Numbered from the stretch's first letter, positions 9,863 through 57,182 are shown. The stretch: DNA of 64,000 nucleotides from an uncultured Candidatus Poseidoniales archaeon (GCA_964343205.1 CAYFID010000001.1:10835-74834), one strand, 5' to 3'. Notes: a model not told the origin generated them from the letters alone. Numbers and translations: made by a program.

Positions 9863-9940
9863 ATGCCTTGGACTCCATCCAGCCAATTTAACCATAGGGA
9901 CGACGAGTATCATCCTTAAGCATAGATTTCGATAGGAAAA

Positions 9941-27889: not shown

Positions 27890-30799
27890 ATGGACGGGAG
27901 CGTCGAAGAGTGGAACAGGTTCGAGAGGTTAACCCCTTTCCGCGTTAGGGAAGTTCTCCTAATTGCTAGTCAGTTCGACCGATATTTACTGGAAGAGTCA
28001 GGTCACCTAGCAGAGATTCTTCAAGAAGAGTATACTGTGCTAAATCTTTCACAAGCACCCAGGATTATCCACAGCCCGGATGCCAAAGATGCGATAGAGC
28101 TTGTATCGAGCAGGAAATTCGATCTCGTCATCACGATGTCCAAGGTAGGAAAGATGGACGTCTACGAACTGGCTAGAAAATTGAAGAAAATCGAAGACGG
28201 AATGCCGGTAGTAATGCTAAGTCAGAACACCAGGGAGCTGGCGACACTGAGAACGGGAGACGGAATAGACCGGATTTTCGTCTGGAGCGGTGATAGCAGA
28301 ATTTTGCTGTCAATATGTAAACTGATTGAGGATGAGAAGAATGTTGAGAATGACGTCAGAGAGGGGGACGTACAGGTGATTCTCCTGGTTGAGGACAGCA
28401 GGAGGTTCTACTCGGCATACCTTCCACTTCTGTATACCCAGTTGGTAAACCAGACTAGTAGATTGACTGGTGAAGGTGGAAACCTACATGAGAACCTACT
28501 GAGGCTAAGAGCCAGAGCGAAGATTCTGCTCGCTACAGACATGGATGAAGCAAAGGGAATCATAGACAGATACTCCAGGAACATAATTGGGGTCTTCACA
28601 GATGGCCGTTTTCCCAATCAAGGAGGGGAGAGAGAAACAGCAGGATTGGAGCTCGTAAAATATGCAGAGAGCGGACACAGGTACCTTCCAATACTTCTCC
28701 AATCAAAGAACATAGAATTGAAAGAAGATGCGGAAGCTATTGGTGTTCCATTCCTTCACAAGGAAGATCCGATGCTGTACCAGAGAATTGAGGAGTTCAT
28801 GCAAGAAGAAATGAGCTTCGGAGATTTCATATTTAAGACTCCAGAAGGGATTGAGATTGGCAGGGCATCAAACCTAGAGGGTTTGGCAGAAATGGTTAGC
28901 GAAGTCCCATTGGAGTCCCTAGAATTCCATGCAAGTAGGAATGAATTCTCACACTGGCTCAGAGGTAGGACCGAATTCTCTCTGGCATCTTCATTAAGAC
29001 CAATGACATTGGAAGATTTCGATCACTCAGATGAGGTCAGAAACCATATCTCAGAGACAATAAAGTCACACATCCAGAGTGTAAGAAAAAGGACCATCAG
29101 GGATCATGACTCTAAATCAGAAAACGGGGGTTTCCAGAGAATCGGTAGAGGCAGCCTAGGGGGGAAAGGCAGGGGTCTGGCCTTCTTCTATACTAGGATG
29201 GATCAGCTAGAGCTTGGCGTGACATACCCCGAAATCGAATTCGTAGTGCCGAACTCAGTAGTAATTGCAACTGGTGTTTTCGGGGACTTCATCGGTAGAA
29301 ATAATCTATCCAGATTTGCTTACGGCGACTACAGTGATGAAGAGATAAATGAGTCGTTCCTTGCTGGAGACTTCGGTGAAGAGGTCGAGGAAATCAGGGA
29401 GATGTTGGACAAAACCTCCTGGCCTGTGGCTGTTCGCTCTTCGAGCCTACTCGAAGACTCTAGTCACCAACCCTTCGCTGGAGTCTACGCGACATACATG
29501 CTGGCCAACGATCACTCAGATTTGGATGTTAGATTGAGGCGCCTACTACAGGCAATAAAACTAGTTTACGCTTCAATATTCCATAAGAATGCCAAGGACT
29601 ACATCACCGCAACGGCAAGCAATATCGAGGACGAGAGGATGGCTGTTGTGGTCCAGGAAGTGATAGGAAGGAAGACTTCTGGCAGGTTCTATCCGGATAT
29701 TTCGGGTGCAGCGAGGAGTCGGAACCACTACCCAGTAGACCCTCTAAAGATGGAGGATGGGCTTGCTGCAGTCTGTATTGGCCTAGGCAGACAGGTCTCT
29801 ACGGGGGGGAAATGCTTGAGATTCAGCCCGGGACAACCAAAGAGAATCCATCAGTTCTACAGCACCAATTCAATCATAGAAACGTCCCAAAGTAGATTTT
29901 TCGCGATTCCTATGTGTGAAGAATACGGTGACGTCTATCCATCTGAGGAAGAAAACCTGGTTCACTTGGGCCTTAATGATGCCGAGGAAGATGGCAGGCT
30001 CTCTTTGGTGGGTTCTACATACTTAGCCTCTGACGACAGAATTGTGGATTCGATAAAGACCAGTGGTGGATCAAGGCTGGTAACCTTCGCTCCAGTTCTA
30101 AAACGCGAGAAATTTCCACTTGCCCCAATCTTGGACCATGTTCTAAAGACTTGTGAGGAGTTCCTTGCAAGCCCTGTGGAAATGGAGTTTGCGATCAACG
30201 TTGACCGGGATAGTGGGGATAGGAAGTTCGCCATCCTACAGGTTAGGCAACTGATGGACGAGTCCGTGGACATAGACATCGACTTAGACAAGATTGATCG
30301 AAGTAAGGCTGTCTGTGTAAGCAGCAAGTCACTTGGCAATGGGGTGATCGAAGGAGTCAATGATGTCGTATATGTTCACCCCGATCGTATGGATAGGATG
30401 AGGACTGTAGAGTTGGTTCCGTTGATAGAGGAGATTGACGCGAGGCTTAGAAAGGAAGGAAGGCCATACTTGCTGATTGGCCCTGGGAGATGGGGGTCAT
30501 CGGACCCCTCCCTGGGAATTCCTGTTCAATGGAACCAAATCATGGGGGCTAAGACGATTGTCGAAGCCCCAATGTCCGACATTCACGTAGACCCCTCCCA
30601 AGGGACTCACTTCTTCCAGAACATTGTGACCTTCAACATAGGTTATCTAACCATAATTAAAGGTGACCTGGTAGACTGGAGATGGTTGGACTCTCATGAC
30701 CCCAAAGTCGACAAGAAGGGGATGAGGCATATTTCCTTGGACGGCCCTCTCAAGGTTGTTCTGGACAGCCGGGACTCGGAGGCAATCGTAGTTAGATGA
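27890..30799 (+). CDS. Multidomain protein: degenerate receiver-like domain, second receiver domain, PPDK_N-type (PEP synthase / pyruvate phosphate dikinase nucleotide-binding) domain
   Basis: The first REC-like segment DLVITMSKVGKMDVYEL..PVVMLS has Met at the phospho-acceptor position. The second, VILLVEDS...IIGVFTDGRFP, retains the Asp. PPDK_N signatures are RIGRGSLGGKGRGLAFF (about 29153) and VAVRSSSLLEDSSHQPFAGVYATY. No TSHAAI phosphohistidine motif was found. Confidence 0.6.
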   Translation: MDGSVEEWNRFERLTPFRVREVLLIASQFDRYLLEESGHLAEILQEEYTVLNLSQAPRIIHSPDAKDAIELVSSRKFDLVITMSKVGKMDVYELARKLKKIEDGMPVVMLSQNTRELATLRTGDGIDRIFVWSGDSRILLSICKLIEDEKNVENDVREGDVQVILLVEDSRRFYSAYLPLLYTQLVNQTSRLTGEGGNLHENLLRLRARAKILLATDMDEAKGIIDRYSRNIIGVFTDGRFPNQGGERETAGLELVKYAESGHRYLPILLQSKNIELKEDAEAIGVPFLHKEDPMLYQRIEEFMQEEMSFGDFIFKTPEGIEIGRASNLEGLAEMVSEVPLESLEFHASRNEFSHWLRGRTEFSLASSLRPMTLEDFDHSDEVRNHISETIKSHIQSVRKRTIRDHDSKSENGGFQRIGRGSLGGKGRGLAFFYTRMDQLELGVTYPEIEFVVPNSVVIATGVFGDFIGRNNLSRFAYGDYSDEEINESFLAGDFGEEVEEIREMLDKTSWPVAVRSSSLLEDSSHQPFAGVYATYMLANDHSDLDVRLRRLLQAIKLVYASIFHKNAKDYITATASNIEDERMAVVVQEVIGRKTSGRFYPDISGAARSRNHYPVDPLKMEDGLAAVCIGLGRQVSTGGKCLRFSPGQPKRIHQFYSTNSIIETSQSRFFAIPMCEEYGDVYPSEEENLVHLGLNDAEEDGRLSLVGSTYLASDDRIVDSIKTSGGSRLVTFAPVLKREKFPLAPILDHVLKTCEEFLASPVEMEFAINVDRDSGDRKFAILQVRQLMDESVDIDIDLDKIDRSKAVCVSSKSLGNGVIEGVNDVVYVHPDRMDRMRTVELVPLIEEIDARLRKEGRPYLLIGPGRWGSSDPSLGIPVQWNQIMGAKTIVEAPMSDIHVDPSQGTHFFQNIVTFNIGYLTIIKGDLVDWRWLDSHDPKVDKKGMRHISLDGPLKVVLDSRDSEAIVVR

Positions 30800-32840: not shown

Positions 32841-32879
32841 GCAATGGGTTCATGCGAGTCGGGGAGTTGGGGTGTTCCC

Positions 32880-33335
32880 ATGGAGTGGACCAGGGTTAAC
32901 GTTCAATCGGACGACGATTCCGTTGAAGGTACCCTTGATTTTGAAGATCTGAAAATAGGGCTTGACACTAATGCTGAGTCAATGCACGAGTCATTTCTCA
33001 AGGGCTTGCCCCACCTTTCAGAAGTCCAAGAAAGACACAGTGGCGTGGTGTCAGATATAGAGTCGCGGGCACTAAGTACAACAGTCTCGTCATTGGGCGA
33101 CTTCCTCTCAGAATTCGGAGGAGAATGGAGCGAGTCAGAAATCAGGATTCCATTACAAGTGGAAATGAGGGCAGACGTTGTAGTGGATGCCAAGGAATAT
33201 CATGGGAGTCAAGTGGTTCGAATTATTTCTCCAGAGAGGTTTGGGGGCATGTTCAGGTCCTTCCATCTGCCTGAGGGCAGGAATATCCTGGGGGCGTCCT
33301 GGGAAGGGGAGATTCTCTCCATCAAGATAGGTTAA
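32880..33335 (+). CDS. Small heat-shock protein (Hsp20 / alpha-crystallin family)
   Basis: The C-terminal FRSFHLPEGRNILGASWEGEILSIKI matches the Hsp20 F.R.F.LP....I.A...dGvL.I pattern; start uncertain (32844 or 32880). Confidence 0.55.
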   Translation: MEWTRVNVQSDDDSVEGTLDFEDLKIGLDTNAESMHESFLKGLPHLSEVQERHSGVVSDIESRALSTTVSSLGDFLSEFGGEWSESEIRIPLQVEMRADVVVDAKEYHGSQVVRIISPERFGGMFRSFHLPEGRNILGASWEGEILSIKIG

Positions 33336-36300
33336 TCACTCGTCTGACTCGAGTTGCAAGGGGCCTCTAGTAGGCATTTCCTGAATTGCTTCTATCTCCT
33401 GAATTACTGAAGAGAGGGCCAGCTGTGCGTTGTCCCTGTGTGAGTCCCCAAGGACGTGACTAGAGTATCGGGCCTCTTCGAATATTCTGTCTAAGGAAAT
33501 CAGAGAAGCCTCGCTGATAGGGAGTGCTTGCCTGATTGCGGATTCGAACTCTCTGACCGTTTCGAAATTGCGGCGCAAGAAGCTCCTTCTCATCAACACC
33601 GAACAAAGATTCTGGTAGCACAGGAAAATCGCCTTCCTGTACTCATCTCCGGAGGCCAGCATCTCGGCGGTCTGACTGAATACGCTGGCAAGTTCCTTAA
33701 TAGCGGATTTCCTCCTTGTATTCACCAGCATGGCGCCGATGGACAAAGCCGCAGCAGCAGCCAGTAGAGCTCCAATTGCAACCGTAGCGGATCCGAAGAG
33801 AGATCCCGAATCTTGCTCCTCGTAATCTATCTGTACCCCTCCAGTTGGCAACACGGCTAGGCTTCCAGGGTCGATGTATTCAGAGTCGGACCCAATCATC
33901 ACGCTGAGCCTGCCCCATGAAGACAGGTCTGATAGTGGGGGCATGGGTGCTAGAGACTTGAACTCGTAATCGAACACCCCCTCTGAGCTCGTTAGCTTGG
34001 ACATTGAGAAGTGTGAGGTGCTTCCATTCAGAAGAATCGCCGTCATGGACAAGCCCTCCATGGGCTCCCCTGTGTCCTTTGCAGTTACGTTTACAGTCCC
34101 CCTAATCACCCTCTGTCCTATTGATAGTTCTAGATCCGATAGGACGAATTCAACCTCGACCAGAATCATGACATCTACGTCCTTCGATGCCCCGTTGAGG
34201 AATCTGTCCTGATCGGATTCCACCGCTATTGTAATCGTGTTTTCTCCCGGGTGCATGTATTCTTGGGCCTTTGCCCTGATTTGGAAGTTCATCGTGTTCG
34301 GGTTGTCCCATGGCCCCAAAGTAGTTGGAAGAGCTGAGTCACCCCACCACAGCGTCATAGTCAGATTTCCAAATATTGCAGAGTCGCCCCCGACTTCCCG
34401 TATCAGACCCTGAAGCATTATCGAACTCGAAGGTGAGGGATCTCCTCTTACGATCGTGTTGGTTATTGGCTGAATCTCGATTACTATGTCAGAAAGGGCA
34501 AAGACCGTGAGCACAGAGTCTGTTGGCAAGTAGAGGAACTCGCCGCCATATTGGAAGGTGACATTGTGGGACCCGCGACTGAGGGAGTACTGGACTCGTT
34601 GGGAATAAGAAAACAGTCCCCCGGCCTCAGTGATTACAGTTTCCACAATTGAGCCATCTAACAGCACCAAGACCTCCCTGCCGTCCAAGCCCTGTTCGAA
34701 TCCGGTGTCCGATTCGAACAAGCGTCCGGTGAAGTTCCACTCCCCCCCTCTGGTGGCGTACACTTCCTCGACTTGTAAAGAAATAGACGTGTGGTATGAT
34801 ACGGTGAATGATGATTCAGTGCTACCCTGTCTGTAGAAACCCTGGGCTGGAGAGACTGCAGAAACTGAGTGATTACCGATTTCCATGGACTCGGGCAAGG
34901 TCCAGTTTAATGACCAAGTTCCATTGTCTACAGAGCTGGCCATTCCCACAAGCAGCCCGTCCACGAAAACCTCGATTGTATGGCTGCCTAGCCAGCCATC
35001 CTCTAGATTGTCCTTTACCCTGCCCGAGATCGTAAGAGTATCGCCAACTGCTACTGGGTGGGGTTCTTCAATTGTAACGAAAACCGGGGAAAATACGGTA
35101 AATACTACTGAGGAGTTTGAAGGAAGAACGAATTGCTCTCCTTCGTATGACACCTCAATAAGTAGAGGGCCTAGGTGCATGTCTGGAGAGATCGGTACAA
35201 AGGCAGTGAAGGAGCCGTTACCAGCTACTGACAAGGATGTTAGTTCCTCTCCGTTAATTGTCAGCACTAGCTCCCTGTTGGGTAGGGCTCTACCGACCCC
35301 ATCTGTTAGCATACCCTCGATGAGGGCAACCTCTGATCTGTCTATCTCACCTGGAGGGGTGGAAATCACTATTTGTGAAGTCTGGGTGACATTGAATCCC
35401 ACGGAATCAGATGAGCCAATGTAGTACTCTGGGTTGATTGAGTCCCCTTGGCCCATTGGGTCGACCCATGAGAAACCCCCTAGGAACTCGACTCTAGCAG
35501 TGTGCAAACCGAATTCCATGTCCGCGGGAATCTGGAATGTTATCGACCACTGGCCAGTGGTTGCGTTGGAGACAGTCGTGTATGAAGGACCAACATCTAT
35601 ACCGTCAATATACAGGTGGATAAGCCCCCCGAGTGGGTTCCCGTCATCCTTCAGTGGCTGTCCTCTCTCGTCCATTAGCGAGCCAATGAGTGTTACTGAA
35701 TCCCCGGCAATTGACGGAGAGGACGCCTCCTTCAATGTCAAGACGGTGGGGGCCAAAACGATTACGCGAGTCCATGTCTCGTCACCAAGGAGTCCAATTG
35801 ATCCATTTATCCCAGAGAATGTGGCGTTGACCACCATTGGACCGGGATCCCGGTCATCCCTAACTACGATGGAGGCAGATGCGAGCCCATCAGAATCCGT
35901 GATGCCCCCCCATACAGTGACGTTGTCAATCTTGACGATTAGGGTAGCGGATTGGAGAGGGGTTCCTGAGTTGTCAATTATTGAGAGATTTATGTCAAAA
36001 GATTCCCCTCTTAACGTTCTGCTGTCCGAGTCTAAATCGTCGGGGCTCTCGATTGTTAAGAATGAGTATCCTCTGCTGTCGAATGTAGAAAATCCTGAGG
36101 CAGAGGTGAAGTAAGTTACCTGAGGGGTGAAGTCTACTTCGATAGAATGAGGGCCTCTGGGGAAAGAAAGTTCCAGTCTGATTTGGGCTATCCAGGTCCC
36201 ATCAGATTGGAATGAGACTTGAGGGACGGTGAATGTGTCTGTTTCGCCATCTATCGTAAATGTCAGAGTTGGGTTAAGTGCGTTTCCTGTTCTGTCCGTA

Positions 36301-39300
36301 AGCCCGCTTCCGTTGCTAGATGTGAGTGAGCCTGAGACATTGAAGAACTCGCCCGGGAGGGGGTTAGCAGTAATTTGGTCAATGGCCATGCTAGTGGATG
36401 ATCGTACTGTGATGGTGTTGAGGACCTGTACTGCTGGGTTCAGGTCTTCTGACCCGTTGAATACGAATGTGATATTAACCAAGCCAAGTGGGTGGTTATG
36501 GGGAATATCGAACTCGAAAGCGACGCTGCCGTCGGCAGCGGTTACATCGGGATCTAACCAGGTTTGGTGGAATCTGGCATGGATAGTCAGCCCCGACAAT
36601 GGTGCTTCATTATTACTGAACTCAACTAGTCGGGTCGTAATTGTGGCTGTTTCTCCTCTGTTGACTATTGTGTTGATGAATGGGTTTGAATCTACGAATT
36701 GTGAGACACCCATTACTAGGATCGAGGCGTCTCCCGTACCGGTGAGGTAGAATGGAGTCGAGTCGTTAACTACGCTTACGATTACGGTCCTGTCACCTCT
36801 TAGAACGCCATTTCCTAGGGTGTCTGTGGGGACTGTTACGTTGAAGGATCCAGTAGCATTTGTCGTGTAATTTTCAATCAACAACTCGCCGGGCTCGTCG
36901 AGGAAGAATACGTTGATTCCGACAGGGCCCTCGATCGATCTGTTCGAATCCACGGAGTCAAGAACTGTCCCTTCGATGATAAATGGCTGAAGAGCGGTGA
37001 CCTGCGAAGGTATTGAGGTGATATCTACAGAACTGTCTACTTGCACAGTAAGATTGACGATGCTCTCATTTCCAATCCACCTTCCTGCTCCGGCAGTGGT
37101 TAGGTTATCAGTGAGGTCGTCTGGGGCGTGGACCCTTACATCGTAGAAACCAGGAGGGGTGGAGGCGGGGACTACTGGATTGAAGGAAAATCGCCCTGCA
37201 GAGTCGGTGGTCCCACTCTGCAGTAGCTGCTGCAGAGGCCCCCCCCAATCGAAATATAGATCCAGCGATACGCCAGAGATGGTTTCTGTGGCGTCTTCAA
37301 TGTCAGTCACTGTGGATTCCACAATTAGCTGCTCTCCGGCAACTAGGATGATTGACTGAGGGGTTGACTCGACAACGAATTCAGTCTGTATGCCAATCTG
37401 GATAACTGACGAATCACCTGCATTGTAGTATGAGTCTCCTTGAGGAGGATTTACAGAGAAATCTAGCCTGATTTCTAGGTCATAGACACCAGAGGAAATC
37501 CCAGAGGGGATTTCGAAGGAAAGGTTGTAGGCACCGTTTGAAGTGTCTAACCATCCCGATGCAAGAGTGTATACAGTTGGCGAGGCTGGGAAGCCCCCGG
37601 GGGTATTGGGGAGTTCGGACGGAACATTAAGCAGAGCCGTAACGGAGGAGTTGTTGCCAATCACTTGGGTTATCAGAACCATGTCCATTGCAAATCCAGA
37701 AACCCAATTCGTCGACCCGCGTGCCGTCCACTCCTCACCTAACGTAGCTGAGGCGTTAGCAAGGCCTTTGACTCGCACTATCTCCGAGGTCGAGTTCGGA
37801 CTTAGCCATGTGGAGCCACCGTAACTTAGCTCCCATGCATAGTCCCCGGGGTCCATGTCCAACTCTGGAGTGAAGCTTGTAGTAATCCTCCCAGAATCGG
37901 GGTCGGTTTGGTTCCAAACAGAATCGCCAGCGAAGTCTAGGTTGAAATCACCCTCGAAGGAAGCGAATGATGACCCGGTGTGGTCGGTGAGGAAAACGTC
38001 GGTATTGTGCTCTCTTCCCCTAATGGCCGGAGGTAGTGTATAATCGAAAACCACAAAGCTGCGAATTCCGAATATGTCACTAAACTGTTCTTGGTCGTTA
38101 GCATTAAGATCATCTGCATCGAACTGGAACCGAACTTCTACGGGTCCTGCTGGTAGAGGAACATCCGAGGATCCAAATAGCCAAGAAATCGAGAATTCCC
38201 CTGGTGATGACCCCCATGAAGAACTATTCAGATACCATGAAGAAAGCTGTTCGAAGGGTCCGGAAATATCTGATCTTCTCATCTCCAGAAATAGAGTGCC
38301 ATTTAGGGGCGTTGGAGATGGGCCGCGACTTAGCACTGTACCGTTTAGGAATATGTTACTATCGATCTCTAGGATCGAGTTATTTGTGCCCTCTGCCTCA
38401 AGAACTACGGATAGATTAGGAGATAGTGTGATGTTGAACTGGAAGGGGAAGGATCCGGGCCTAGCATGGTATTCAGGGGGAGTCGCATTATTTTGGTCAC
38501 TCGAGTGCCAGCCAAGGAATGAGATAGCTGCGCCAATTAGGCCTAGTGGTTCGGACTCATCGATTGGAACAGAGAATTCGTAGAACCCTCCGCCGGATAC
38601 ATCAGAAACAAGAGTTACCTCCCCATCTACTGAAGATGAAAAATTGAGGACAACCTGAAGATTGTCTACGATTGAGGGGTCTAGATTTGGGGAGCTAGAC
38701 CATGACAACTGTCCTGAGACGGTGGTGTTTACTCCAATCCCCAGCATTGGTTCGGTGATTGGAGATGGCTCATTAATTGAAATTGATACATCGTCCGACA
38801 CATTAAGCACCCATGGCAATGAAGAAAAGGTTGAGAAATCCAAGTAGCCAGTAATTCCTTGTGTCCCGACATAGCCCTTTTCTGAGGTAAGTATTACGAG
38901 AGATCCTAGTCCGGGCTGAATTACCTGTTCTGGAAGGCCGGTAAGATTGAAGGAGCCGTTGGAATCAGTTACCGCCGTGGCCACGATGTGCTCCTGAACC
39001 GCAGCTCTCCCGGGTATCTCTTCAGATAACTCTGGATCGACTAAATACAGGGTTACGGAGATATTGTTGGCAGCAGAGAGGTTGTCCAAGAAGACTAGGG
39101 TCCCATTTATCCAAATATGGTCGGAGATGGTGGTATTCCTCTCTACTGAATCTGGCCCCCAGGAATCCAGGGTCACGGATACCTGGGAAGCTGGAGGGCA
39201 GGCTTCGAATGGGAGCCACCCCAAATCAAGTTCCCCTTGGTTCTGATTTGTCTGCAAATGTACTTCTGCCCATCTAGTGAAATCCTTTCCGTAGACCTGG

Positions 39301-42300
39301 ATTCCCTTGCCGTCCCAAGTTCCCCCGGAAAATCCTGTTACCTTCCTAGCAGGGATCCCGGCAACCCTAAGCATTGTGACGAATACAGTGGTGAATTCGT
39401 CGCAACTTCCCTGATGGGACGAATTCAAGATCCAGTGGGTCACGTCGCTTGTGTTCCAATGCCCGTCTGCTCTACCAGAGCCATCGTGGTTCCTTAGGAA
39501 AGTAATGGTTTCATTACCATTAATCAGAAAGTCCTGGATTGCAATGACCTTGTCCCATGCCGAAATTGCTCCAGACTGGTCCAATACACTTTGTGTTAGA
39601 TTAGAAACAAATTCACTATTGTCGAGGAAGTCCTGGGGAAGGTCAAGTCCATATTCTGATCCAGAGAAGGATGTGCTATTATCCCTAATCTCTGTTCCAA
39701 GAATTACTTCTGGGGCATTCACGTAGAGAGCCTCAATGACAGCATTGTCCACAATTACATCTCTCGTAAAATTGGAGAAGTTTAGACCCGCGGAAAGGTC
39801 AATCCAAGTCGTATAGTTTACAACGTTGTGGGGTTGAATCAATTCTTGTCCTGGCCCAATGTAACCTGCCTCGTCAAATGTTATCTCCCATGAAAGTGGC
39901 CCGGAGTGGTTCCAAAACGACTGATCTGCCACGTCCTCGTCTGCAGAGAAATCGGGGATAATCTGCGAATTGCCGAATAGACTACTGTTTACCCCCCATG
40001 AGACTCCTGTGTAATAATCGTAGGTATGCCATCTCCAGTAGTGAACTATGGAAGGATCTAACCCCTCTGAAGTGTTTGTGGCTGTAAACATAAGTGAGTT
40101 TTCCATGATGTCGTCTAGTGGGTCAAAGGGGTCCCCAGGAGAGCCTACGCATTCGAGAATCCAGAAATCAGGGGGGCACTCTTCCCCATCTGGGACACCA
40201 CCTCCGTCTGTATCTGGGTCCCTCCAATCGGTTCCTAGCTCCTCTTCTATGGTGTCTGGGATACCGTCACCGTCTGTATCCAGGGGATTTATGTCATCAT
40301 CAGGATTGTCTTGGGGATTTGTTCCATCGATGTATTCCTGCCCATCTTCTACGCCTCCGTTATCGGTGTCAGCTACGTTCCACAATGTGAACCAAACGTC
40401 AATTGTAAAATTTCCACCGTCCCCACCCAATATTCCGAAAATCATTTCACATCCTGTGGTGTTCTCGAAGTAGTTGTTAAGCCCATCTCCATCAGTATCC
40501 AATAGGTTGTGGCACGGCTCCCTGGGATCTGTCAAATTGAGAACTTCGGAGAGATCGTCCATCCCGTCTCCGTCGGTATCGGCCAGACTAGGATCTGAGA
40601 GGAATCCCCAGGTTGCCATCTGTTCTTCCCAGTCTGCAAGGCCGTCTCCGTCGGTATCCTTGTAGTCGTCGTCGCACCAAGGGTCGTTAATAGCCCCGGA
40701 TGTTGCGTTCCAGCACCAGGAACCATTGATGAAAACGATAGTGTTTGAATTAGTAGGTGGGGGTGTGTCTACCCCCTCCATGAACACAGATTCCAATGAA
40801 GTGTAATTGAATGGAGTTCTAGTCCCATTAGGAGATATGTAGTAGGCATGCGGGGTGTTTCCCCTCCAGTCAACTGGGTCTGGGTCGATTCCAGTTGTAG
40901 AGTTGAGTGTGAGGGTGTCCCTACTAGCATCCCATTCTAAAATGAGGAATGTCAGCTCGAAGATTGATGTGCAAGGATCGGTCTGGCCCGGGAATCCCTC
41001 GTCCCCGTCACCGACGCCACCTCCGTCTGAATCTGAAACATTCCAAAGTGTGCAAGAATTATTCTCCTGCCAGTTCTGCAAACCGTCTCCGTCAAAGTCC
41101 CCTTCGTCGTTAATTCTGGTTGGATCGGTCTCTCCGGGATCTATGACCCCGTTTCCGTTCAAATCCTCTTCTCCGTCGTCCAAATGATCGCCGTCAGTAT
41201 TGTTGCTCCTTGGGTCAGACCCCTGAGGAGGGTCCCCATAGGTTCCATTGAACTCTATTCCATCGGGGATTCCGTCGGAGTCGGTGTCTGATGAGGTCGG
41301 GTCGGTAAGAAGTACTAGTGCTTCAAATGAGTCATTGAGCCCGTCTCCGTCTGTGTCATTATTTTGAGGATCGGTCTGGGTAATACCATCAACTTCTGCA
41401 GTGAAAATCAGGCAACCACCGGGTCCAAGGGACAATACAGGGTTGCAGGGTGACTCTGTGATTGTCATATTAATTGGGCCGGGTCGAAAGTACTGAGTGG
41501 GGGGGAAGGTGGAACCGTTCCTTGTCCCCCATGCTGGGTTAACATACTCGTATATGTTGGCTAGACCGTCAGAGTCTGGGTCTCCGAAGGTGCCATCCTG
41601 ATTAGAGTTCGAAGTTGGGTCCAAACCGTTTGCGGCCTCCCATCCATCAGGCATCCCGTCTCCATCGGTGTCCCATCCATTGGGGTCCTCGTCTTCTATC
41701 CCATCTCCATCGTCATCATTGGAGCTGCAGTCTGCATCTCCGTCGAAGTCACCGTCATCCGAGTCCACCATCCCATCGTGGTCATTGTCAAATGAATCGG
41801 AGCAAATGTTCCCCATCGGGTCCTCATCTGCCCCATCAGAGCCAGACCCTTGGATGACTTGCATTGCACTCTCTTCGTCCCAATCAGATACTGGTACTGT
41901 TCCGTTCCACCAAACACCATTATCGAGGACGTTGGCTGTGGATGGTTCATCCCAACCAACCGGAATTCCAAATAGATACTCGTTCAAGTTAGTAAGACCA
42001 TCAGAGTCGGGGTCTCCAGTTGAGCCGTTATTTCCGGAGGATGATAGGGGGTCTAACCCATATTGCCATTCCCACCCATCTGGAAGGCCATCGTTGTCGG
42101 AATCCCAATCCTGAGGTTGAGTGTTGATTAGGAATTCAATACCATATGGCAATCCGTCTGCATCTTGGTCGTTGGTAGTAGCAGAAGCCTCGAAGATTCC
42201 CACTTGCATGCCAGCGATTCCAGAGGAAAGTAGGAAGAATGAGAATACTATCGCTGAACCTTTCTTTTTGGTAATTTCCGACCCTTCGTAATTACTCATT

Positions 42301-42311
42301 ACGAACTGCAT
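33336..42311 (-). CDS. Giant (2991 aa) surface protein. Signal peptide, N-terminal array of thrombospondin-type-3-like Ca-binding repeats, transglutaminase-like (TGc) core, long series of Ig-like beta domains, C-terminal TM and a DUF4129-like cytoplasmic tail.
   Basis: Many DTDGDGxxD / DSDNDGLPDGWE repeats. TGc core GSCDEFTTVFVTMLRVAGIPARKVTGF...FTRWAEVHL (about 39250..39410). TM VAIGALLAAAAALSIGAMLV, then a tail containing RIFEEARYSS. Confidence 0.8.
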   Translation of the reverse strand: MQFVMSNYEGSEITKKKGSAIVFSFFLLSSGIAGMQVGIFEASATTNDQDADGLPYGIEFLINTQPQDWDSDNDGLPDGWEWQYGLDPLSSSGNNGSTGDPDSDGLTNLNEYLFGIPVGWDEPSTANVLDNGVWWNGTVPVSDWDEESAMQVIQGSGSDGADEDPMGNICSDSFDNDHDGMVDSDDGDFDGDADCSSNDDDGDGIEDEDPNGWDTDGDGMPDGWEAANGLDPTSNSNQDGTFGDPDSDGLANIYEYVNPAWGTRNGSTFPPTQYFRPGPINMTITESPCNPVLSLGPGGCLIFTAEVDGITQTDPQNNDTDGDGLNDSFEALVLLTDPTSSDTDSDGIPDGIEFNGTYGDPPQGSDPRSNNTDGDHLDDGEEDLNGNGVIDPGETDPTRINDEGDFDGDGLQNWQENNSCTLWNVSDSDGGGVGDGDEGFPGQTDPCTSIFELTFLILEWDASRDTLTLNSTTGIDPDPVDWRGNTPHAYYISPNGTRTPFNYTSLESVFMEGVDTPPPTNSNTIVFINGSWCWNATSGAINDPWCDDDYKDTDGDGLADWEEQMATWGFLSDPSLADTDGDGMDDLSEVLNLTDPREPCHNLLDTDGDGLNNYFENTTGCEMIFGILGGDGGNFTIDVWFTLWNVADTDNGGVEDGQEYIDGTNPQDNPDDDINPLDTDGDGIPDTIEEELGTDWRDPDTDGGGVPDGEECPPDFWILECVGSPGDPFDPLDDIMENSLMFTATNTSEGLDPSIVHYWRWHTYDYYTGVSWGVNSSLFGNSQIIPDFSADEDVADQSFWNHSGPLSWEITFDEAGYIGPGQELIQPHNVVNYTTWIDLSAGLNFSNFTRDVIVDNAVIEALYVNAPEVILGTEIRDNSTSFSGSEYGLDLPQDFLDNSEFVSNLTQSVLDQSGAISAWDKVIAIQDFLINGNETITFLRNHDGSGRADGHWNTSDVTHWILNSSHQGSCDEFTTVFVTMLRVAGIPARKVTGFSGGTWDGKGIQVYGKDFTRWAEVHLQTNQNQGELDLGWLPFEACPPASQVSVTLDSWGPDSVERNTTISDHIWINGTLVFLDNLSAANNISVTLYLVDPELSEEIPGRAAVQEHIVATAVTDSNGSFNLTGLPEQVIQPGLGSLVILTSEKGYVGTQGITGYLDFSTFSSLPWVLNVSDDVSISINEPSPITEPMLGIGVNTTVSGQLSWSSSPNLDPSIVDNLQVVLNFSSSVDGEVTLVSDVSGGGFYEFSVPIDESEPLGLIGAAISFLGWHSSDQNNATPPEYHARPGSFPFQFNITLSPNLSVVLEAEGTNNSILEIDSNIFLNGTVLSRGPSPTPLNGTLFLEMRRSDISGPFEQLSSWYLNSSSWGSSPGEFSISWLFGSSDVPLPAGPVEVRFQFDADDLNANDQEQFSDIFGIRSFVVFDYTLPPAIRGREHNTDVFLTDHTGSSFASFEGDFNLDFAGDSVWNQTDPDSGRITTSFTPELDMDPGDYAWELSYGGSTWLSPNSTSEIVRVKGLANASATLGEEWTARGSTNWVSGFAMDMVLITQVIGNNSSVTALLNVPSELPNTPGGFPASPTVYTLASGWLDTSNGAYNLSFEIPSGISSGVYDLEIRLDFSVNPPQGDSYYNAGDSSVIQIGIQTEFVVESTPQSIILVAGEQLIVESTVTDIEDATETISGVSLDLYFDWGGPLQQLLQSGTTDSAGRFSFNPVVPASTPPGFYDVRVHAPDDLTDNLTTAGAGRWIGNESIVNLTVQVDSSVDITSIPSQVTALQPFIIEGTVLDSVDSNRSIEGPVGINVFFLDEPGELLIENYTTNATGSFNVTVPTDTLGNGVLRGDRTVIVSVVNDSTPFYLTGTGDASILVMGVSQFVDSNPFINTIVNRGETATITTRLVEFSNNEAPLSGLTIHARFHQTWLDPDVTAADGSVAFEFDIPHNHPLGLVNITFVFNGSEDLNPAVQVLNTITVRSSTSMAIDQITANPLPGEFFNVSGSLTSSNGSGLTDRTGNALNPTLTFTIDGETDTFTVPQVSFQSDGTWIAQIRLELSFPRGPHSIEVDFTPQVTYFTSASGFSTFDSRGYSFLTIESPDDLDSDSRTLRGESFDINLSIIDNSGTPLQSATLIVKIDNVTVWGGITDSDGLASASIVVRDDRDPGPMVVNATFSGINGSIGLLGDETWTRVIVLAPTVLTLKEASSPSIAGDSVTLIGSLMDERGQPLKDDGNPLGGLIHLYIDGIDVGPSYTTVSNATTGQWSITFQIPADMEFGLHTARVEFLGGFSWVDPMGQGDSINPEYYIGSSDSVGFNVTQTSQIVISTPPGEIDRSEVALIEGMLTDGVGRALPNRELVLTINGEELTSLSVAGNGSFTAFVPISPDMHLGPLLIEVSYEGEQFVLPSNSSVVFTVFSPVFVTIEEPHPVAVGDTLTISGRVKDNLEDGWLGSHTIEVFVDGLLVGMASSVDNGTWSLNWTLPESMEIGNHSVSAVSPAQGFYRQGSTESSFTVSYHTSISLQVEEVYATRGGEWNFTGRLFESDTGFEQGLDGREVLVLLDGSIVETVITEAGGLFSYSQRVQYSLSRGSHNVTFQYGGEFLYLPTDSVLTVFALSDIVIEIQPITNTIVRGDPSPSSSIMLQGLIREVGGDSAIFGNLTMTLWWGDSALPTTLGPWDNPNTMNFQIRAKAQEYMHPGENTITIAVESDQDRFLNGASKDVDVMILVEVEFVLSDLELSIGQRVIRGTVNVTAKDTGEPMEGLSMTAILLNGSTSHFSMSKLTSSEGVFDYEFKSLAPMPPLSDLSSWGRLSVMIGSDSEYIDPGSLAVLPTGGVQIDYEEQDSGSLFGSATVAIGALLAAAAALSIGAMLVNTRRKSAIKELASVFSQTAEMLASGDEYRKAIFLCYQNLCSVLMRRSFLRRNFETVREFESAIRQALPISEASLISLDRIFEEARYSSHVLGDSHRDNAQLALSSVIQEIEAIQEMPTRGPLQLESDE

Positions 42312-42388: not shown

Positions 42389-45343
42389 TCATATCAGTTC
42401 GACATCTTCGTCGTCGTACTTTTCCACCCCTATGGGTTCTTCCTGAGCAGTAACTGGAGCGGGTATTTCTGAGAGTTCGTCGGACTCCGCAGTTTCTGGT
42501 TCAGATAGTGACTCTATCATGTCCATCTGGGCCATCCATCTTCTTCTGTTAATTCTGCTCTGAACACCGGCGAAAAGAAGGATAACGCCCACAACAACAA
42601 GGACCAAGGATATTGGTCTTGGGTGGGAGATCTCATTGAGAATTATGTCCGTGAAAGAGCCAATTTCCACAATAGCATTTAGCGTGAACTTTGCGGTCTC
42701 TGACTCCGAGAAACTCTGCTCAGTGTCAAGAGGAGTTGCTGTAACGGTAATGGGTACAGAATCACCGTTATTTGCCGAAGAAGAAACGGAGATTTCCACC
42801 GTGAAAGTAGCCTCATCGAAAGCTTCAATCTCGATAAGTGGAGAACCGGAGAGACCCCCAATCCCCACACCCCAGCCGCTTTGGTCCACGTCTGCCTCAA
42901 GTAGAACTGTCATGGGGCTATTTCCTTCGTTCTTTACCTTCATCTGGATGGAATAGTCCTCACCGGGAGCCAGTTTCGTGTTCTGTGATACTTGAACTAT
43001 CTCCAACATAGGTAGGTCTGCGTCAACCTCGAACGTCATTGGAAGGTCGAAATACCTAGGTTGTTCCTCTTCAATGTCTTCGACGATTCTAAGGAAAACA
43101 GTGTGATTACCTACTTCTACCTGGTTTGTCATTGTAACACTCACGAATACCTCTGTGAAATCACCCGGACCTAATGATATTCGGGGTACGGCTTCACCTT
43201 CAGAATCGGTAATCTGAAAATCCCACTGCCCATAAGCCTGGTTTCGATCCGTGTTCTCCTTCAGCGAGGAGGGGTTCTGAAGAAGCCACCACGATGCTGC
43301 GTCAAGCTCTGTTTCGCTGTTGGTTATCCTTGCCCTGAACTCCATATATGGCCTATCCTGACCTGGTGCGCATAACGAGACCTTCATGTGCCCCAAAGGA
43401 GTTCCGTCACAATCCTGTGAAATCTCACCCCTTATTCCAAATGTTCTCTGAATTGTGAAGGAGACCGTTGTAGCGGTAGAGGCGTTTCCACCGCTAATTA
43501 CCTCTATCTCGATCTCACCTATGTCATTGTCATCTCTGTCTACGCTTGGCTTAATACCAAGAATTAGGACCTGGGTATTGTGCCTCTCCAAGAGTGATGT
43601 GTGAAACGTTCCGTCACCTTCGTCCTGATCGATTCTCTGTCCGGTATTGTTATCATGCAACTGAAAAATTGCCTTTGACCTCTTCACAATGTCGATTCGG
43701 AACGTGTCTGCATCGAAACCTGTATTGAAAATCTCCAAAATAAATGGGTTAAATTCCCCGTATTCAGCGAACCTAGGGACAGTGGAATCCAGAGCATCCC
43801 CCCTCGAAGAGTTGGCTATTGGCACCTTATGATCTTCTGACCAAATTGAGACTACTGGAGGTTGATAAACATCTATCTTCTCCACACTGAGGGTGAGTGT
43901 GTCTTGATGTACGACAGAAATTACCCCTTCAACATCTGCCTCGGCGACGGCTCTGATTTCGATCTTCTTCGGCATGCCGGTAAGATCGTTTGGAGCAGTC
44001 AGAGTAACGGTTGGGTTCAATATTGTCCCACCTGAGCTCATTTCGTATCCTGCTGGAGAATCGAACTCAACTAACCAAGAGCTCCCCAACTCAGTTAGGA
44101 CCTCGAGTTGAACATTCATTGATTTTGTAGAGTCCCCCCTATGCACCAGAACCATGGGTATTGGAGTAACCTTTCCGGGTGCAAAATATTCCACTCCACG
44201 ATCGAACCTGTGCTTCAGAGAGACTCCGAACTGGTGCATCTCTATTGGTTCGTGCTCGATTTCAATCTCGTTCCCGCCTACGTCCCTAACTTTGAGAATC
44301 GCTGTGTACTCCCCGGAAGGTAGGCCGCTCTTGTAGGTGTGCAAGTATTTCCCAAAGATTCCAGTGCTAGAGTCTTCGATGTCTTCTAAATCTCCCGTAA
44401 TCCTTTCATCTACCTCGTAATTCCCGCCCGGGCCCCGCAATAGGATGTGAACCCTGGAGATGTCACTCCTTCCGAAAGCACTGATTGCATCAATTGAGAA
44501 CTGCATCTCCCTGTCCTCAATAATGTCATTGGGGAACCAGTCCAGTTCGGGGCCCTCGGCGATGTTTGCCCCCTCTCTCTGTACTACGATTATGCTATTC
44601 ATCAGGGCATTACCATTTACTTCCACTTTGGAGAACTTATTGGCTTCGTTTTCTATCTTATTGAATGCGACCTCGGCAGTGCAATCTGACCCGCCAAATG
44701 GACTATCGCTGCTGTCGCATCCAGACATGCTAGCTCTGACTTTGATAATCAACCGCTCGTTATTCTTGACCTCGAAGGACTCAGAACCCCCAATTCCTAC
44801 CTCGATAATCTCGTGGTCGAAGTCACAAGTACTTCCCCATGAAGAAGTGCATACTGACCCCCCGTAGGTAGTACTCCCAACGGATCCTGACGTGGTCAGT
44901 ATAGAAACAGTCCAGTCAACGTTTGAGTTTTGGGGCCCCTCTGCCTTGAGGAAAAGTTCTACCGGGATGTAATAGGAATCGTTAGAATGAAATTGTCTAC
45001 CGAAAAGTTCCATTGAAGACATCAATGAAATAGACATGAACTGAACATCGTCGTCCAGGGCACTGGAGACCAATTGCTCTTCATCGGCCGAGGGGGGCTG
45101 TGTTGTAATGAGTCCGTCCATTCCAGAGGTCTGGTTTTGTCCTGGCTCGGCAAAGTATAGTTTGTACAAATTAGCGTCAGGAGGACTTTCGGAGGCATAT
45201 GATTTTCCAGAAGCTTGCAAATCGTTGGTATTTATTCCAAAGCCGTAGGGCACTAGAAGAAGCAAGGCAACGACAAACGTTACGAGGGTCGTTTTGCGGG
45301 TAGTCCGGCCATAACTGTGTTTTCGCACGATTGTGCGCCGCAT
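42389..45343 (-). CDS. Surface protein (984 aa) with N-terminal signal anchor, Ig-like/CARDB-like beta domains, and C-terminal TM plus acidic tail
   Basis: N-terminus TTLVTFVVALLLLVPYGF. C-terminal TM ISLVLVVVGVILLFAGV followed by the acidic tail ...EIPAPVTAQEEPIGVEKYDDEDVELI. Confidence 0.65.
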   Translation of the reverse strand: MRRTIVRKHSYGRTTRKTTLVTFVVALLLLVPYGFGINTNDLQASGKSYASESPPDANLYKLYFAEPGQNQTSGMDGLITTQPPSADEEQLVSSALDDDVQFMSISLMSSMELFGRQFHSNDSYYIPVELFLKAEGPQNSNVDWTVSILTTSGSVGSTTYGGSVCTSSWGSTCDFDHEIIEVGIGGSESFEVKNNERLIIKVRASMSGCDSSDSPFGGSDCTAEVAFNKIENEANKFSKVEVNGNALMNSIIVVQREGANIAEGPELDWFPNDIIEDREMQFSIDAISAFGRSDISRVHILLRGPGGNYEVDERITGDLEDIEDSSTGIFGKYLHTYKSGLPSGEYTAILKVRDVGGNEIEIEHEPIEMHQFGVSLKHRFDRGVEYFAPGKVTPIPMVLVHRGDSTKSMNVQLEVLTELGSSWLVEFDSPAGYEMSSGGTILNPTVTLTAPNDLTGMPKKIEIRAVAEADVEGVISVVHQDTLTLSVEKIDVYQPPVVSIWSEDHKVPIANSSRGDALDSTVPRFAEYGEFNPFILEIFNTGFDADTFRIDIVKRSKAIFQLHDNNTGQRIDQDEGDGTFHTSLLERHNTQVLILGIKPSVDRDDNDIGEIEIEVISGGNASTATTVSFTIQRTFGIRGEISQDCDGTPLGHMKVSLCAPGQDRPYMEFRARITNSETELDAASWWLLQNPSSLKENTDRNQAYGQWDFQITDSEGEAVPRISLGPGDFTEVFVSVTMTNQVEVGNHTVFLRIVEDIEEEQPRYFDLPMTFEVDADLPMLEIVQVSQNTKLAPGEDYSIQMKVKNEGNSPMTVLLEADVDQSGWGVGIGGLSGSPLIEIEAFDEATFTVEISVSSSANNGDSVPITVTATPLDTEQSFSESETAKFTLNAIVEIGSFTDIILNEISHPRPISLVLVVVGVILLFAGVQSRINRRRWMAQMDMIESLSEPETAESDELSEIPAPVTAQEEPIGVEKYDDEDVELI

Positions 45344-45444: not shown

Positions 45445-45530
45445 GCAGGGGTACCCGAGCTGGTCAAAGGGGCCGGACTTAAGCTCCGGTGCTTAGTGCT
45501 TCATGGGTTCGAATCCCATCCCCTGCACCA
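45445..45530 (+). tRNA. tRNA-Leu (anticodon UAA), class II, with genomically encoded CCA
   Basis: Acceptor gcagggg/cccctgc (7 perfect bp), D-arm ccc-gagctggtcaaag-ggg, anticodon stem ccgga/tccgg with loop cTTAAgc, long variable region, T-arm atggg-ttcgaat-cccat, discriminator A, then CCA. Confidence 0.8.
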
Positions 45531-55424: not shown

Positions 55425-57182
55425 ATGACCGAGTGGTCTTCGAAAACAGTTCAGGAACTCAGGGACGAGTTGCGCTCCATGGGCCTGTCAGGATCGGGAA
55501 AAAAGGCCGATTTGGTTGAAAGGCTCCAAGAGAGTGAGGAAGCTAGCATAGCTATAGATGCAGAAATCGTAGAAGAGCCACCCTACGAGGGGGTTTCTGG
55601 TGTGCTGGCTAGGGCTAGGACATTCGGGATGAGGAATGCAGGAAGGTCTCGGATAAACACGATAGTTGTGGCTGCCATCATCATTATTGGAACGTCTGGA
55701 GGGGGGTTATTGTTCGGGGACGACATAGCAAGATGGATTAGAGGATCTCCGGATTACGAATTAATTGAGTTCGACTCCAACCAGACTAGATCGTTCGCAC
55801 AGGGTCTTGTGGACTTGGGGCATCCGGAGTGGGAAGGAAGGCTATCTGGCACAGTGGAGGAAGAGAACACGGCCCAGTCCATAAAGACCAACTTCTCGAA
55901 CAGCGGATTGCCCTCGATTCTCGACGAGTTTGAGGTGCCTCTGTACTATATGGGGAATCAGTTCGACCTCATGATTTGCCAGCCGGGAAACCTCGGGGGA
56001 ATAATTGGTGGCCCTACCCCATGCTCAATTGCCGACTTGAATAGAGATGAGACGGAATACGCACACAGGGTCGACTATGTCGTCCAGGGATATAGTGGAA
56101 GTGTGAATATACCTGCAAGCAGTAACGTCCAGGTGGTTGATCTTGGAATGGGCAACGAGTCAGAAGAGTGGGGTTCCGCGGGAAATGGAATCGGTCTGGT
56201 TTGGATTATGGATGGGCAGGAAGGTCAGCCTGGAACAGAAAGCAATACAATACTGATGGGAAGGGCCCAGGATAACAGCCTTAGAGGGCTTATCACTATC
56301 AACGCGAGGCAGAACTGTGATGACCTAGTGCAAGACGACTGCGTGCCTTACTCGAAGTCATTGGATATCACGCAGTTTGATGAGAAACCCTACGACATCG
56401 GTTTTGTCATGGTGTCGAAAAGTGTTGGTGAGACCATAGTCGACCAAGTAGTAAACGGGGATGGGATGCTCCAATTCCAAGTAGACGTAGAGAACCAGCA
56501 AGATGGCTACATACACGTCCCATGTGGAATCATCGAGGGTGAAACCGACGAGAAAATCATCATCGGGGCACATCATGACACTGTGTACAACGGACAAGGC
56601 GCTGTCGACAACACAGCAGGAACTGCCACGGTCCAAGAGATGGCTCGGCAGATGGCCCTTGTTAAGACGGAGCTTGGCGAGCCTAAGCTGACGATCTACT
56701 TCTGCACATGGGGAGGAGAGGAAGAGGGGCTATGGGGCTCTAGTGAATGGGTTCAAAAGTATCAGTCTGACCTTCAAGAGAATCTCAGACTTTACATCAA
56801 TCTAGACATGAACCATGTAGATGCCCAGAGGAACTCAGGCCTCACCCTACAAGGAAACAGCCCGGATGATGTGAGGCACATCGAAGGAATTGTCAGTAAA
56901 TTCTCGAAGGAGCACCCCGATTTGGCAAACAAGTACCCAATCAGCATAAGGCAGTTAGATTCTGAAGAAATGCCATACAACTCGGACCACGCTCCGTTCG
57001 TTTACAACCTATACGAAGGTAGTGAGGATGAAGGGGAATTCGGCAAGGCAATGTTATGCTATGGATCCGGTTCTTCGGAGTACCATACTTACCTGGACAC
57101 GATGGATAGGTTCAACGAAGAGAGCCTGATGGTTTCAGGAATTATCTACGGTTCACTAGTGCGTCACCTTGCATGGGACTAA
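55425..57182 (+). CDS. Membrane-anchored M28-family peptidase with an N-terminal cytoplasmic SAP domain
   Basis: SAP motif TVQELRDELRSMGLSGSGKKADLVERL. TM TIVVAAIIIIGTSGGGLLF. M28 motifs GAHHDTVYNGQGAVDNTAGTATVQEMARQ, GGEEEGLWGSSEW, NLDM and SDHAPF. Confidence 0.8.
   Translation: MTEWSSKTVQELRDELRSMGLSGSGKKADLVERLQESEEASIAIDAEIVEEPPYEGVSGVLARARTFGMRNAGRSRINTIVVAAIIIIGTSGGGLLFGDDIARWIRGSPDYELIEFDSNQTRSFAQGLVDLGHPEWEGRLSGTVEEENTAQSIKTNFSNSGLPSILDEFEVPLYYMGNQFDLMICQPGNLGGIIGGPTPCSIADLNRDETEYAHRVDYVVQGYSGSVNIPASSNVQVVDLGMGNESEEWGSAGNGIGLVWIMDGQEGQPGTESNTILMGRAQDNSLRGLITINARQNCDDLVQDDCVPYSKSLDITQFDEKPYDIGFVMVSKSVGETIVDQVVNGDGMLQFQVDVENQQDGYIHVPCGIIEGETDEKIIIGAHHDTVYNGQGAVDNTAGTATVQEMARQMALVKTELGEPKLTIYFCTWGGEEEGLWGSSEWVQKYQSDLQENLRLYINLDMNHVDAQRNSGLTLQGNSPDDVRHIEGIVSKFSKEHPDLANKYPISIRQLDSEEMPYNSDHAPFVYNLYEGSEDEGEFGKAMLCYGSGSSEYHTYLDTMDRFNEESLMVSGIIYGSLVRHLAWD

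Follow-up and report, generated by a model that had tools for sequence, protein, structure and literature searches.

TgpA, in its Pfam architectures, ends in a C-terminal DUF4129 domain. TgpA of Pseudomonas aeruginosa (PA2873) carries its transglutaminase-like (TGc) domain on the outer side of the cytoplasmic membrane, with a membrane helix after it; the protein is 668-688 aa long, the five helices at its N-terminus belong to DUF3488, its Cys-His-Asp triad is intact, and it shows transglutaminase activity in vitro (PMC3507681). Here, this system is compared with a giant protein encoded in a 64,000-nucleotide stretch of DNA (the window) from an uncultured Candidatus Poseidoniales archaeon (GCA_964343205.1 CAYFID010000001.1:10835-74834). 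The minus-strand open reading frame (ORF) at 33336..42311 starts with ATG, ends with the stop codon at 33336-33338, and codes for a type-I surface protein of 2991 aa; all of its features described below lie on this strand and are numbered along the window. It is a real 2991-residue cell-surface protein that is kept across marine Group II (MGII) archaea, and its architecture is a much-expanded TgpA type, with TGc outside, a membrane helix, and DUF4129 inside. From the N-terminus to the C-terminus, a signal or anchor segment is followed by TSP3 calcium-binding repeats, one TgpA-like TGc module, an Ig-like stalk of about 1800 aa, a transmembrane helix, and a 128-aa DUF4129 tail. An initial annotation, made from the sequence alone, had called a 2991-aa ORF combining TSP3 repeats, TGc, an Ig-like stalk, one transmembrane helix and a DUF4129-like tail; the ORF was confirmed, the quoted motifs all sit where they had been placed, and every part was found. 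It had also put forward, if real, the link of an extracellular TGc module to a cytoplasmic domain across the membrane in an archaeon. The link is present, but it is not novel, since it is the known TgpA-type architecture, and canonical versions exist in relatives taken to be archaeal.

Compared to TgpA, the giant protein shares the membrane helix (aa 2842-2863) followed by DUF4129 (aa 2898-2964), but it has 2991 aa, about 660 additional aa of TSP3 repeats and about 1800 additional aa of stalk; it lacks the catalytic His, has an extra Cys two residues after the catalytic Asp position (Asp+2), and is not accompanied by a nearby MoxR or DUF58 gene. DUF3488 gave no Pfam match in the giant protein, whose N-terminus has one hydrophobic segment and not five helices. 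The MGII family is distinct in three respects: a single N-terminal segment in place of DUF3488, a distal TSP3 region with a long stalk, and a triad that is inactivated, probably with a disulfide at the active site.

The next-nearest relatives are giants with several TGc domains (P0064, P0069, P0070 and P0072, which we take to be archaeal). They are 2400-3150 aa long and similarly possess membrane helices and a DUF4129-type tail containing 'FEEADYSEH'. On the other hand, TSP3 repeats are absent from them, their N-terminus contains five helices, and the TGc domain occurs in 3-4 tandem copies, most of which keep Cys-His-(Glu/Asp) and have Thr at Asp+2. In P0064, five N-terminal helices are accompanied by four TGc domains, a DUF4129 tail and HEAT-repeat matches; MoxR and DUF58 are encoded two genes away, which matches the known association of MoxR, DUF58 and TGc, for example in the bifidobacterial PFNA cluster (PMC8430577). 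A larger set of such proteins (P0064, P0069, P0070, P0072-P0089; locus L082) ranges from 1500 to 3300 aa, with TGc in 3-4 tandem copies; the nucleophile position is often Ser, Ala or Gly in the first of these, and the later ones keep Cys-His-Glu/Asp.

TGc folds without a triad and with a binding or structural role are found in the Rad4/XPC transglutaminase-like domain and in erythrocyte band 4.2, the latter being devoid of the nucleophile Cys. These are intracellular and eukaryotic, whereas the TGc module of the giant protein is extracellular and has kept its Cys, probably paired with a new one. Band 4.2 is described as the inactive structural member of the human transglutaminase family (PMC13073648).

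The TgpA-like extracellular module of the giant protein comprises aa 740-1050 (39162..40094), including an upstream YWR...Y(Y/F)TG motif. Within it, Pfam Transglut_core (PF01841) matches aa 953-1036 (39204..39455) with an E value of 1.2e-11 and 45.3 bits (cut-off 23). Among solved structures, the best relative by sequence is Protein Data Bank (PDB) entry 6g49, the TgpA periplasmic domain from P. aeruginosa, with an E value of 0.005 for the single sequence and 2.6e-9 for the family profile; the profile also matches FXIII and TG2. The collinear upstream YWR..(F/Y).G..W motif shared with TgpA is not significant alone. A Foldseek search with a low-confidence model of aa 740-1080 also placed 6g49 first (E 2.6e-3, TM score 0.25), which is weak corroboration, and Rad4 structures were among its matches. 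The extracytoplasmic TGc module is therefore closest to TgpA, as 6g49 tops the sequence, profile and fold searches.

HMMER, run exhaustively against 1.84 billion representatives, returned 1710 matches, and the triad columns were read from 204 sequences, namely the best 150 of these 1710 matches plus the proteins of two word-index searches. In addition, a family-motif scan of 185,579 species genomes found at least 271 relatives, the best 80 of which were examined; together with the locus L001, these 80 make up the 81 loci referred to below. The nucleophile position is occupied by Cys970 (39402..39404), which lies in GSCDEF within GSCDEFTTVFVTMLRVAGIPARKVTGF (aa 968-994; 39330-39410), at the N-terminus of the core helix. 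It aligns with the nucleophiles of TgpA and FXIII (Cys314) and is invariant in the 81 loci and in all orthologs, so that the TGc signature proposed around a nucleophile Cys stands.

The position of the catalytic His, in contrast to that of the nucleophile, has changed. In FTRWAEVHL (aa 1011-1019; 39255-39281), Thr1012 (39276..39278) is aligned to the TgpA His, with 'fdaHaWvEy' of 6g49 pairing with 'kdfTrWaEv' in both the single-sequence and the family-profile alignments; Trp1014 and Glu1016 of the H-x-W-x-E motif fix the register and thereby place Thr1012 at the His position. Across the 81 loci this position is Thr in 66, Ser in 13 and Lys in 2, and in distant orthologs it is Thr, Ser, Asp, Asn, Leu or Ala, which shows that the canonical triad has been lost family-wide. 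No profile alignment of the protein or the family against 6g49 restored a His, and transglutaminase activity of the giant protein is predicted to be lost with this residue. His1018, considered as a displaced catalytic His, was rejected, since the register is fixed by Trp1014 and Glu1016 and the residue, although invariant in the 81 closest loci, is replaced by Gln, Arg, Asn or Lys in distant orthologs.

The third triad residue is read in FEACP (aa 1035-1039; 39195-39209). Glu1036 (39204..39206) is assigned to the Asp position because divergent orthologs read GW(I/V)P(I/F/M)DPCP here; the residue is Glu in the 81 loci and Asp or Asn in distant orthologs. The giant protein has thus retained an acid at this position, while the His that would partner it is missing. 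Glu at this position is common among relatives with intact Cys and His, and as the multi-TGc domains mostly keep Cys-His-(Glu or Asp), it is an ordinary third residue in this branch. The columns for the nucleophile, the His position, 1014, 1016, 1018, the Asp position and Asp+2 read C / T(66) S(13) K(2) / W / E / H / E / C in the 81 loci, and Cys, T/S/D/N/L/A, conserved W and E, H/Q/R/N/K, E/D/N and Cys across the orthologous family. As judged from these alignments, the real change is the loss of His plus the gain of Cys1038, not Glu1036. The initial annotation had read Thr in place of His and Glu in place of Asp, and both readings are borne out by the alignments of the protein and its family, the Glu being in itself not unusual. 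Its alternative of a pseudoenzyme or a variant triad is shifted toward the pseudoenzyme by the variable His position and the unconserved His1018, with the variant triad kept as a lesser rival; the outcomes it had named as contradicting it were not seen, as the profiles restored no His and the TGc and DUF4129 matches are significant.

The cysteines of the giant protein follow a regular pattern. Sixteen are present in total, of which 14 lie in the ectodomain as seven neighbour pairs (170/195, 289/300, 420/447, 533/546, 600/621, 712/721 and 970/1038) and none in the stalk. In six distant orthologs, these ectodomain residues show only 3 replacements in 84 cells, and the pairs are also kept in 55 full-length species copies. 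Extra ectodomain Cys residues arise as a pair as well (2760/2806, in seven species), and the even number is broken in only 2 of the 55 copies. The last pair joins the former nucleophile to Cys1038 (39198..39200), a family-specific residue at Asp+2 that is invariant in the family, where canonical relatives have Thr, and Cys970 always co-occurs with Cys1038 across the family. Even, paired and conserved Cys residues are the signature of structural disulfides, which suggests that Cys970 pairs with Cys1038 in a putative disulfide. In human TG2, the residue at the position of Cys1038 is Thr360, which active enzymes strictly retain and which forms part of the active-site tunnel beside Cys277 (PMC13073648); the proximity of Cys970 and Cys1038 is plausible for this reason.

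The module is set between two other extracellular regions. At the N-terminus, a hydrophobic segment of 22 aa preceded by KKK (aa 19-40; 42192..42257), as read from the sequence, forms a signal peptide or an N-terminal anchor. It is followed by the TSP3-type calcium-binding region (aa 48-711; 40179..42170), which contains six conserved Cys pairs and 16 D.D.DG motifs at aa 48-703, compared to 0.49 ± 0.69 expected and a maximum of 4 in 2000 shuffles of aa 41-740. Pfam TSP3_bac (PF18884) matches it in five stretches with 31.9 bits (cut-off 25), and in the ortholog comparison this region is the best-conserved part of the protein. The repeats also give partial NCBIfam matches to CglD (NF033765, 88 bits) and MtsD (NF047639, 47 bits), far below the equivalog cut-offs of 400 and 800 bits, respectively, and the repeats alone match. 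The DxDxDG calcium-binding repeats are all that the giant protein shares with these Myxococcus proteins, which have neither a TGc module nor a DUF4129 tail. Thrombospondin genes have been listed among the adhesion traits of MGII (Poseidoniales) by Rinke et al. (PMC6461757).

On the other side of the module, the cysteine-free stalk (aa 1051-2841; 33789..39161) consists of Ig-like or beta-sandwich domains, whose number is estimated at roughly 16 from the length and the period. Pfam matches comprise Big_3_5 (38.6 bits) and, below threshold, CarboxypepD_reg and MG2, and a self-derived profile finds at least six strong repeats of about 110 aa at aa 1990-2588 with weaker copies upstream; by these repeats, the 1790-aa stalk is recognized as a run of beta-sandwich domains. 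A single transmembrane helix then follows as a hydrophobic stretch (aa 2842-2863; 33723..33788) that is kept in orthologs and is succeeded by NTRRK. The dense N-terminal DxDxDGxxDxxE repeats, the Ig-like stretch after TGc and the one membrane crossing near the C-terminus had all been proposed in the initial annotation, and each is recovered here. The topology may be read from several indicators. In aa 41-2841 there are 79 N-x-S/T sequons, 50 of them in the stalk, where shuffled sequences give 29.6 ± 4.8 for the whole stretch (a 2.7-fold enrichment), and the same count finds none in the cytoplasmic tail; Lys plus Arg make up 1.4-3.9% of the ectodomain and 12.5% of the tail. Together with the KKK and NTRRK flanks, the distribution of sequons and these contents indicate a type-I orientation, in which the DUF4129 tail would be inside the cell.

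The cytoplasmic tail has 128 aa (33339..33722), with DUF4129 at aa 2898-2964 (33420-33620) and RIFEEARYSS at aa 2942-2951 (33459-33488). Pfam DUF4129 (PF13559) scores 29.5 bits on the isolated tail (cut-off 24.8) and a sub-threshold 22.9 bits within the whole protein, and all of the homologous tails (43/43) match it, in agreement with the DUF4129-like tail proposed earlier. The tail is conserved on par with the TGc module in the ortholog comparison. An AlphaFold2 model of the tail shows five helices with a predicted local distance difference test (pLDDT) score of 76; Foldseek found no significant neighbour of this model in the PDB, the top match being the HEPN four-helix bundle 2hsb (E 0.034). 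A link to HEPN through the R-x3-H of 'ARYSSH' was dropped, as the Arg is replaced by Asp in more distant DUF4129 tails ('EEADYSEH') and the spacing is shorter than that of the HEPN motif, Rx4-6H. A CxxxxC pair (FLCYQNLC; aa 2898 and 2903; 33594-33614, minus strand) is present in the tails of nearly all orthologs. The literature contains almost nothing on DUF4129.

The best 80 of the at least 271 species genomes with relatives are all Poseidoniales, Thalassarchaeaceae or MGII metagenome-assembled genomes (MAGs). Full-length orthologs have 2700-3090 aa with TGc at about aa 870-1050, and the 55 full-length copies in species genomes have a median of 2982 aa. The gene order is also kept: LipA, then SDR, FolB, a 984-aa protein and the giant gene, then a 163-aa ORF and the XPD helicase. 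The 984-aa gene (42389..45343, minus strand) is co-oriented with the giant gene and lies upstream of it across a 77-nt gap; it is directly upstream in 69 of the 81 loci, and so too in L001, and its product is probably an operon partner. This Ig-like, membrane-anchored protein has hydrophobic N- and C-terminal segments and an acidic C-terminal tail. It was considered as a diverged DUF58/vWA protein and found no support as such, since only weak Ig-like matches (FixG_C, Ig_VWA7 and choice-of-anchor T) were obtained. The 163-aa ORF (32844-33335, plus strand) is convergent with the giant gene, with zero gap to its stop codon; it is kept in 63 of the 81 loci and has no Pfam or NCBIfam match. MoxR and DUF58 partners had been suggested for the giant protein, but none were found in the DNA searched: Pfam detected neither MoxR (AAA_3) nor DUF58 among the window ORFs scanned, and tblastn with the L082 genes found none in the window or in the 81 loci with flanks of up to ±10 kb (1.33 Mb).

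The family is already known on MAG fragments under the names 'transglutaminase-like domain-containing protein' and 'DUF4129 domain-containing protein'. Most database entries of the family are fragments, and this may explain why the full architecture went unremarked. The giant-gene ortholog of L001 (7695-16642), on a long-read contig of 1.1 Mb, has been broken up by gene calling into at least six fragments, probably as a result of frameshift errors. A paper on MGII transcription says nothing on the giant protein.

Based on the results presented above, we consider the giant protein to be, rather probably, a non-catalytic, glycosylated, calcium-binding surface adhesin or envelope spacer with a disulfide-locked TGc fold. 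From the membrane outward, a five-helix DUF4129 domain in the cytoplasm would be followed by the transmembrane helix, a cysteine-free stalk of about 16 domains, the TgpA-type module, and a distal TSP3 region stapled by disulfides. With the His gone family-wide, the TGc-fold module would no longer be a Cys-His-Asp enzyme, and the former nucleophile Cys970 would most likely be locked by Cys1038 at the active-site tunnel position. The loss of His and this lock together make a binding or structural role of the module most likely, so that it may serve as a rigid domain, as do Rad4/XPC and band 4.2 with their inactive TGc folds. The whole protein may then act as a calcium-stiffened, heavily N-glycosylated adhesin or envelope spacer, with the DUF4129 tail tying it to a cytoplasmic partner. 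Several points weigh against this proposal. The AlphaFold2 model of aa 740-1080, built from a 13-sequence alignment, is poor (pLDDT 42.7); Cys970 is strictly retained, which could also mean that it still has a chemical role; and neither His1018 nor Glu1036 varies in the 81 closest loci. Furthermore, whereas the architecture, the topology indicators, the loss of His, the Cys pairing pattern, the conservation and the synteny are observed, the disulfide and the lack of catalysis are predictions from residues, and the adhesion or scaffold role would follow from the domain types only.

The retained residues could also be taken to mean that the module is still an enzyme (a transglutaminase, protease or amidase), in which Cys970 is activated by His1018, Glu1036 or a sequence-distant residue. 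The invariance of Cys970, the conservation of Trp1014, Glu1016 and GW..(E/D), the invariance of His1018 and Glu1036 in the closest loci and the common use of Glu as the third residue in His-bearing relatives are all consistent with it. However, the His position is unconstrained (T/S/K/D/N/L/A), and His1018, six residues further on the same strand, would by strand geometry lie about 20 Å from the canonical site, at a position that is Gln, Arg, Asn or Lys in distant orthologs. We know of no TGc or papain-like enzyme that works without a His, and retained catalysis is considered unlikely. The perfect co-occurrence of two Cys residues at the former active site might instead point to redox activity, either as a switch, for which the regulation of TG2 by the Cys370/371 disulfide offers a precedent (PMC13073648), or as thiol-disulfide exchange, by which a partner or a substrate on particles would become covalently attached to the protein. 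Such a role seems very improbable, as a CxxC context of the thioredoxin kind is missing, the remaining six pairs resemble ordinary structural staples, and oxic surface seawater would favour permanently oxidized ectodomain Cys residues.

A further explanation concerns the tail more than the module. The giant protein may chiefly be a transmembrane receptor, whose ligand or calcium binding outside is relayed by DUF4129 to a MoxR/DUF58-type machine elsewhere in the genome, after the model of TgpA-like proteins from MoxR-DUF58-TGc operons. The tail is a bona fide DUF4129 domain conserved as well as TGc, P0064, the nearest canonical relative, lies two genes from MoxR and DUF58, and the bifidobacterial PFNA cluster joins aaa-atp, duf58 and tgm (PMC8430577). 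Against this, no MoxR or DUF58 homolog occurs in the window or in the 1.33 Mb of the 81 loci, and a single-pass helix under a stalk of about 1800 aa would be a poor conduit for a signal. A receptor as the chief function is therefore doubtful; it is compatible with the adhesin or spacer proposed above, not exclusive of it.

Poseidoniales are among the most abundant archaea of the surface ocean, yet they are uncultured and their envelope is essentially unknown. The presence of the giant protein in at least 271 species genomes, with near-fixed length and gene order, and its glycosylated, calcium-binding character mark it strongly as a candidate major component of the envelope or of adhesion, well suited as a target of metaproteomics and cryo-electron tomography. 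A bolder idea, considered unlikely, is that the giant protein and its 984-aa partner constitute the principal envelope, spacer or particle-attachment organelle of Poseidoniales, in which the TGc site is now a disulfide-locked or redox-gated pocket and DUF4129 works without MoxR/DUF58. If true, this would give the first functional handle on the uncultured MGII surface and on the uncharacterised DUF4129 domain. The converted TGc active site, with its His lost and Cys970 joined by a new tunnel Cys, is a clean natural example of the passage from an enzyme fold to a pseudoenzyme. The layout of TGc outside and DUF4129 inside and the existence of pseudo-transglutaminases were already known, and in this respect the finding is informative and not surprising; what appears to be new is the family-wide loss of His coupled to Cys970/Cys1038, the MGII-wide length and synteny, and the uncoupling from MoxR/DUF58.

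Other genes of the window were also recorded. In a 3158-aa ORF at 11212-20688 (minus strand), aa 391-794 form an STT3/AglB oligosaccharyltransferase domain, after which come over 2000 aa that include CarboxypepD_reg-like repeats; the gene of the sequon-rich surface protein is 13 kb away from this giant AglB fusion. At 5594-11176 (minus strand), a 1439-aa right-handed beta-helix/NosD-like protein with Big_7 is located beside a 411-aa subtilase, apparently as a further surface or secreted pair, and at 3013-5550 (minus strand), an 845-aa STAND-type NTPase (AAA_16/nSTAND6-like) has a weak N-terminal helix-turn-helix match and C-terminal TPR repeats. A 969-aa fusion of a response-regulator receiver with PPDK_N (phosphoenolpyruvate-utilising, ATP-binding) is encoded at 27890-30799 (plus strand) and stands beside the helicase in only 19 of the 81 loci. 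FolB and the 984-aa gene are separated by a tRNA-Leu(TAA) gene at 45445-45530, which is on the opposite (plus) strand. Finally, a 585-aa protein at 55425-57182 (plus strand) carries a SAP domain at its N-terminus together with an M28 peptidase domain, an unusual pairing.

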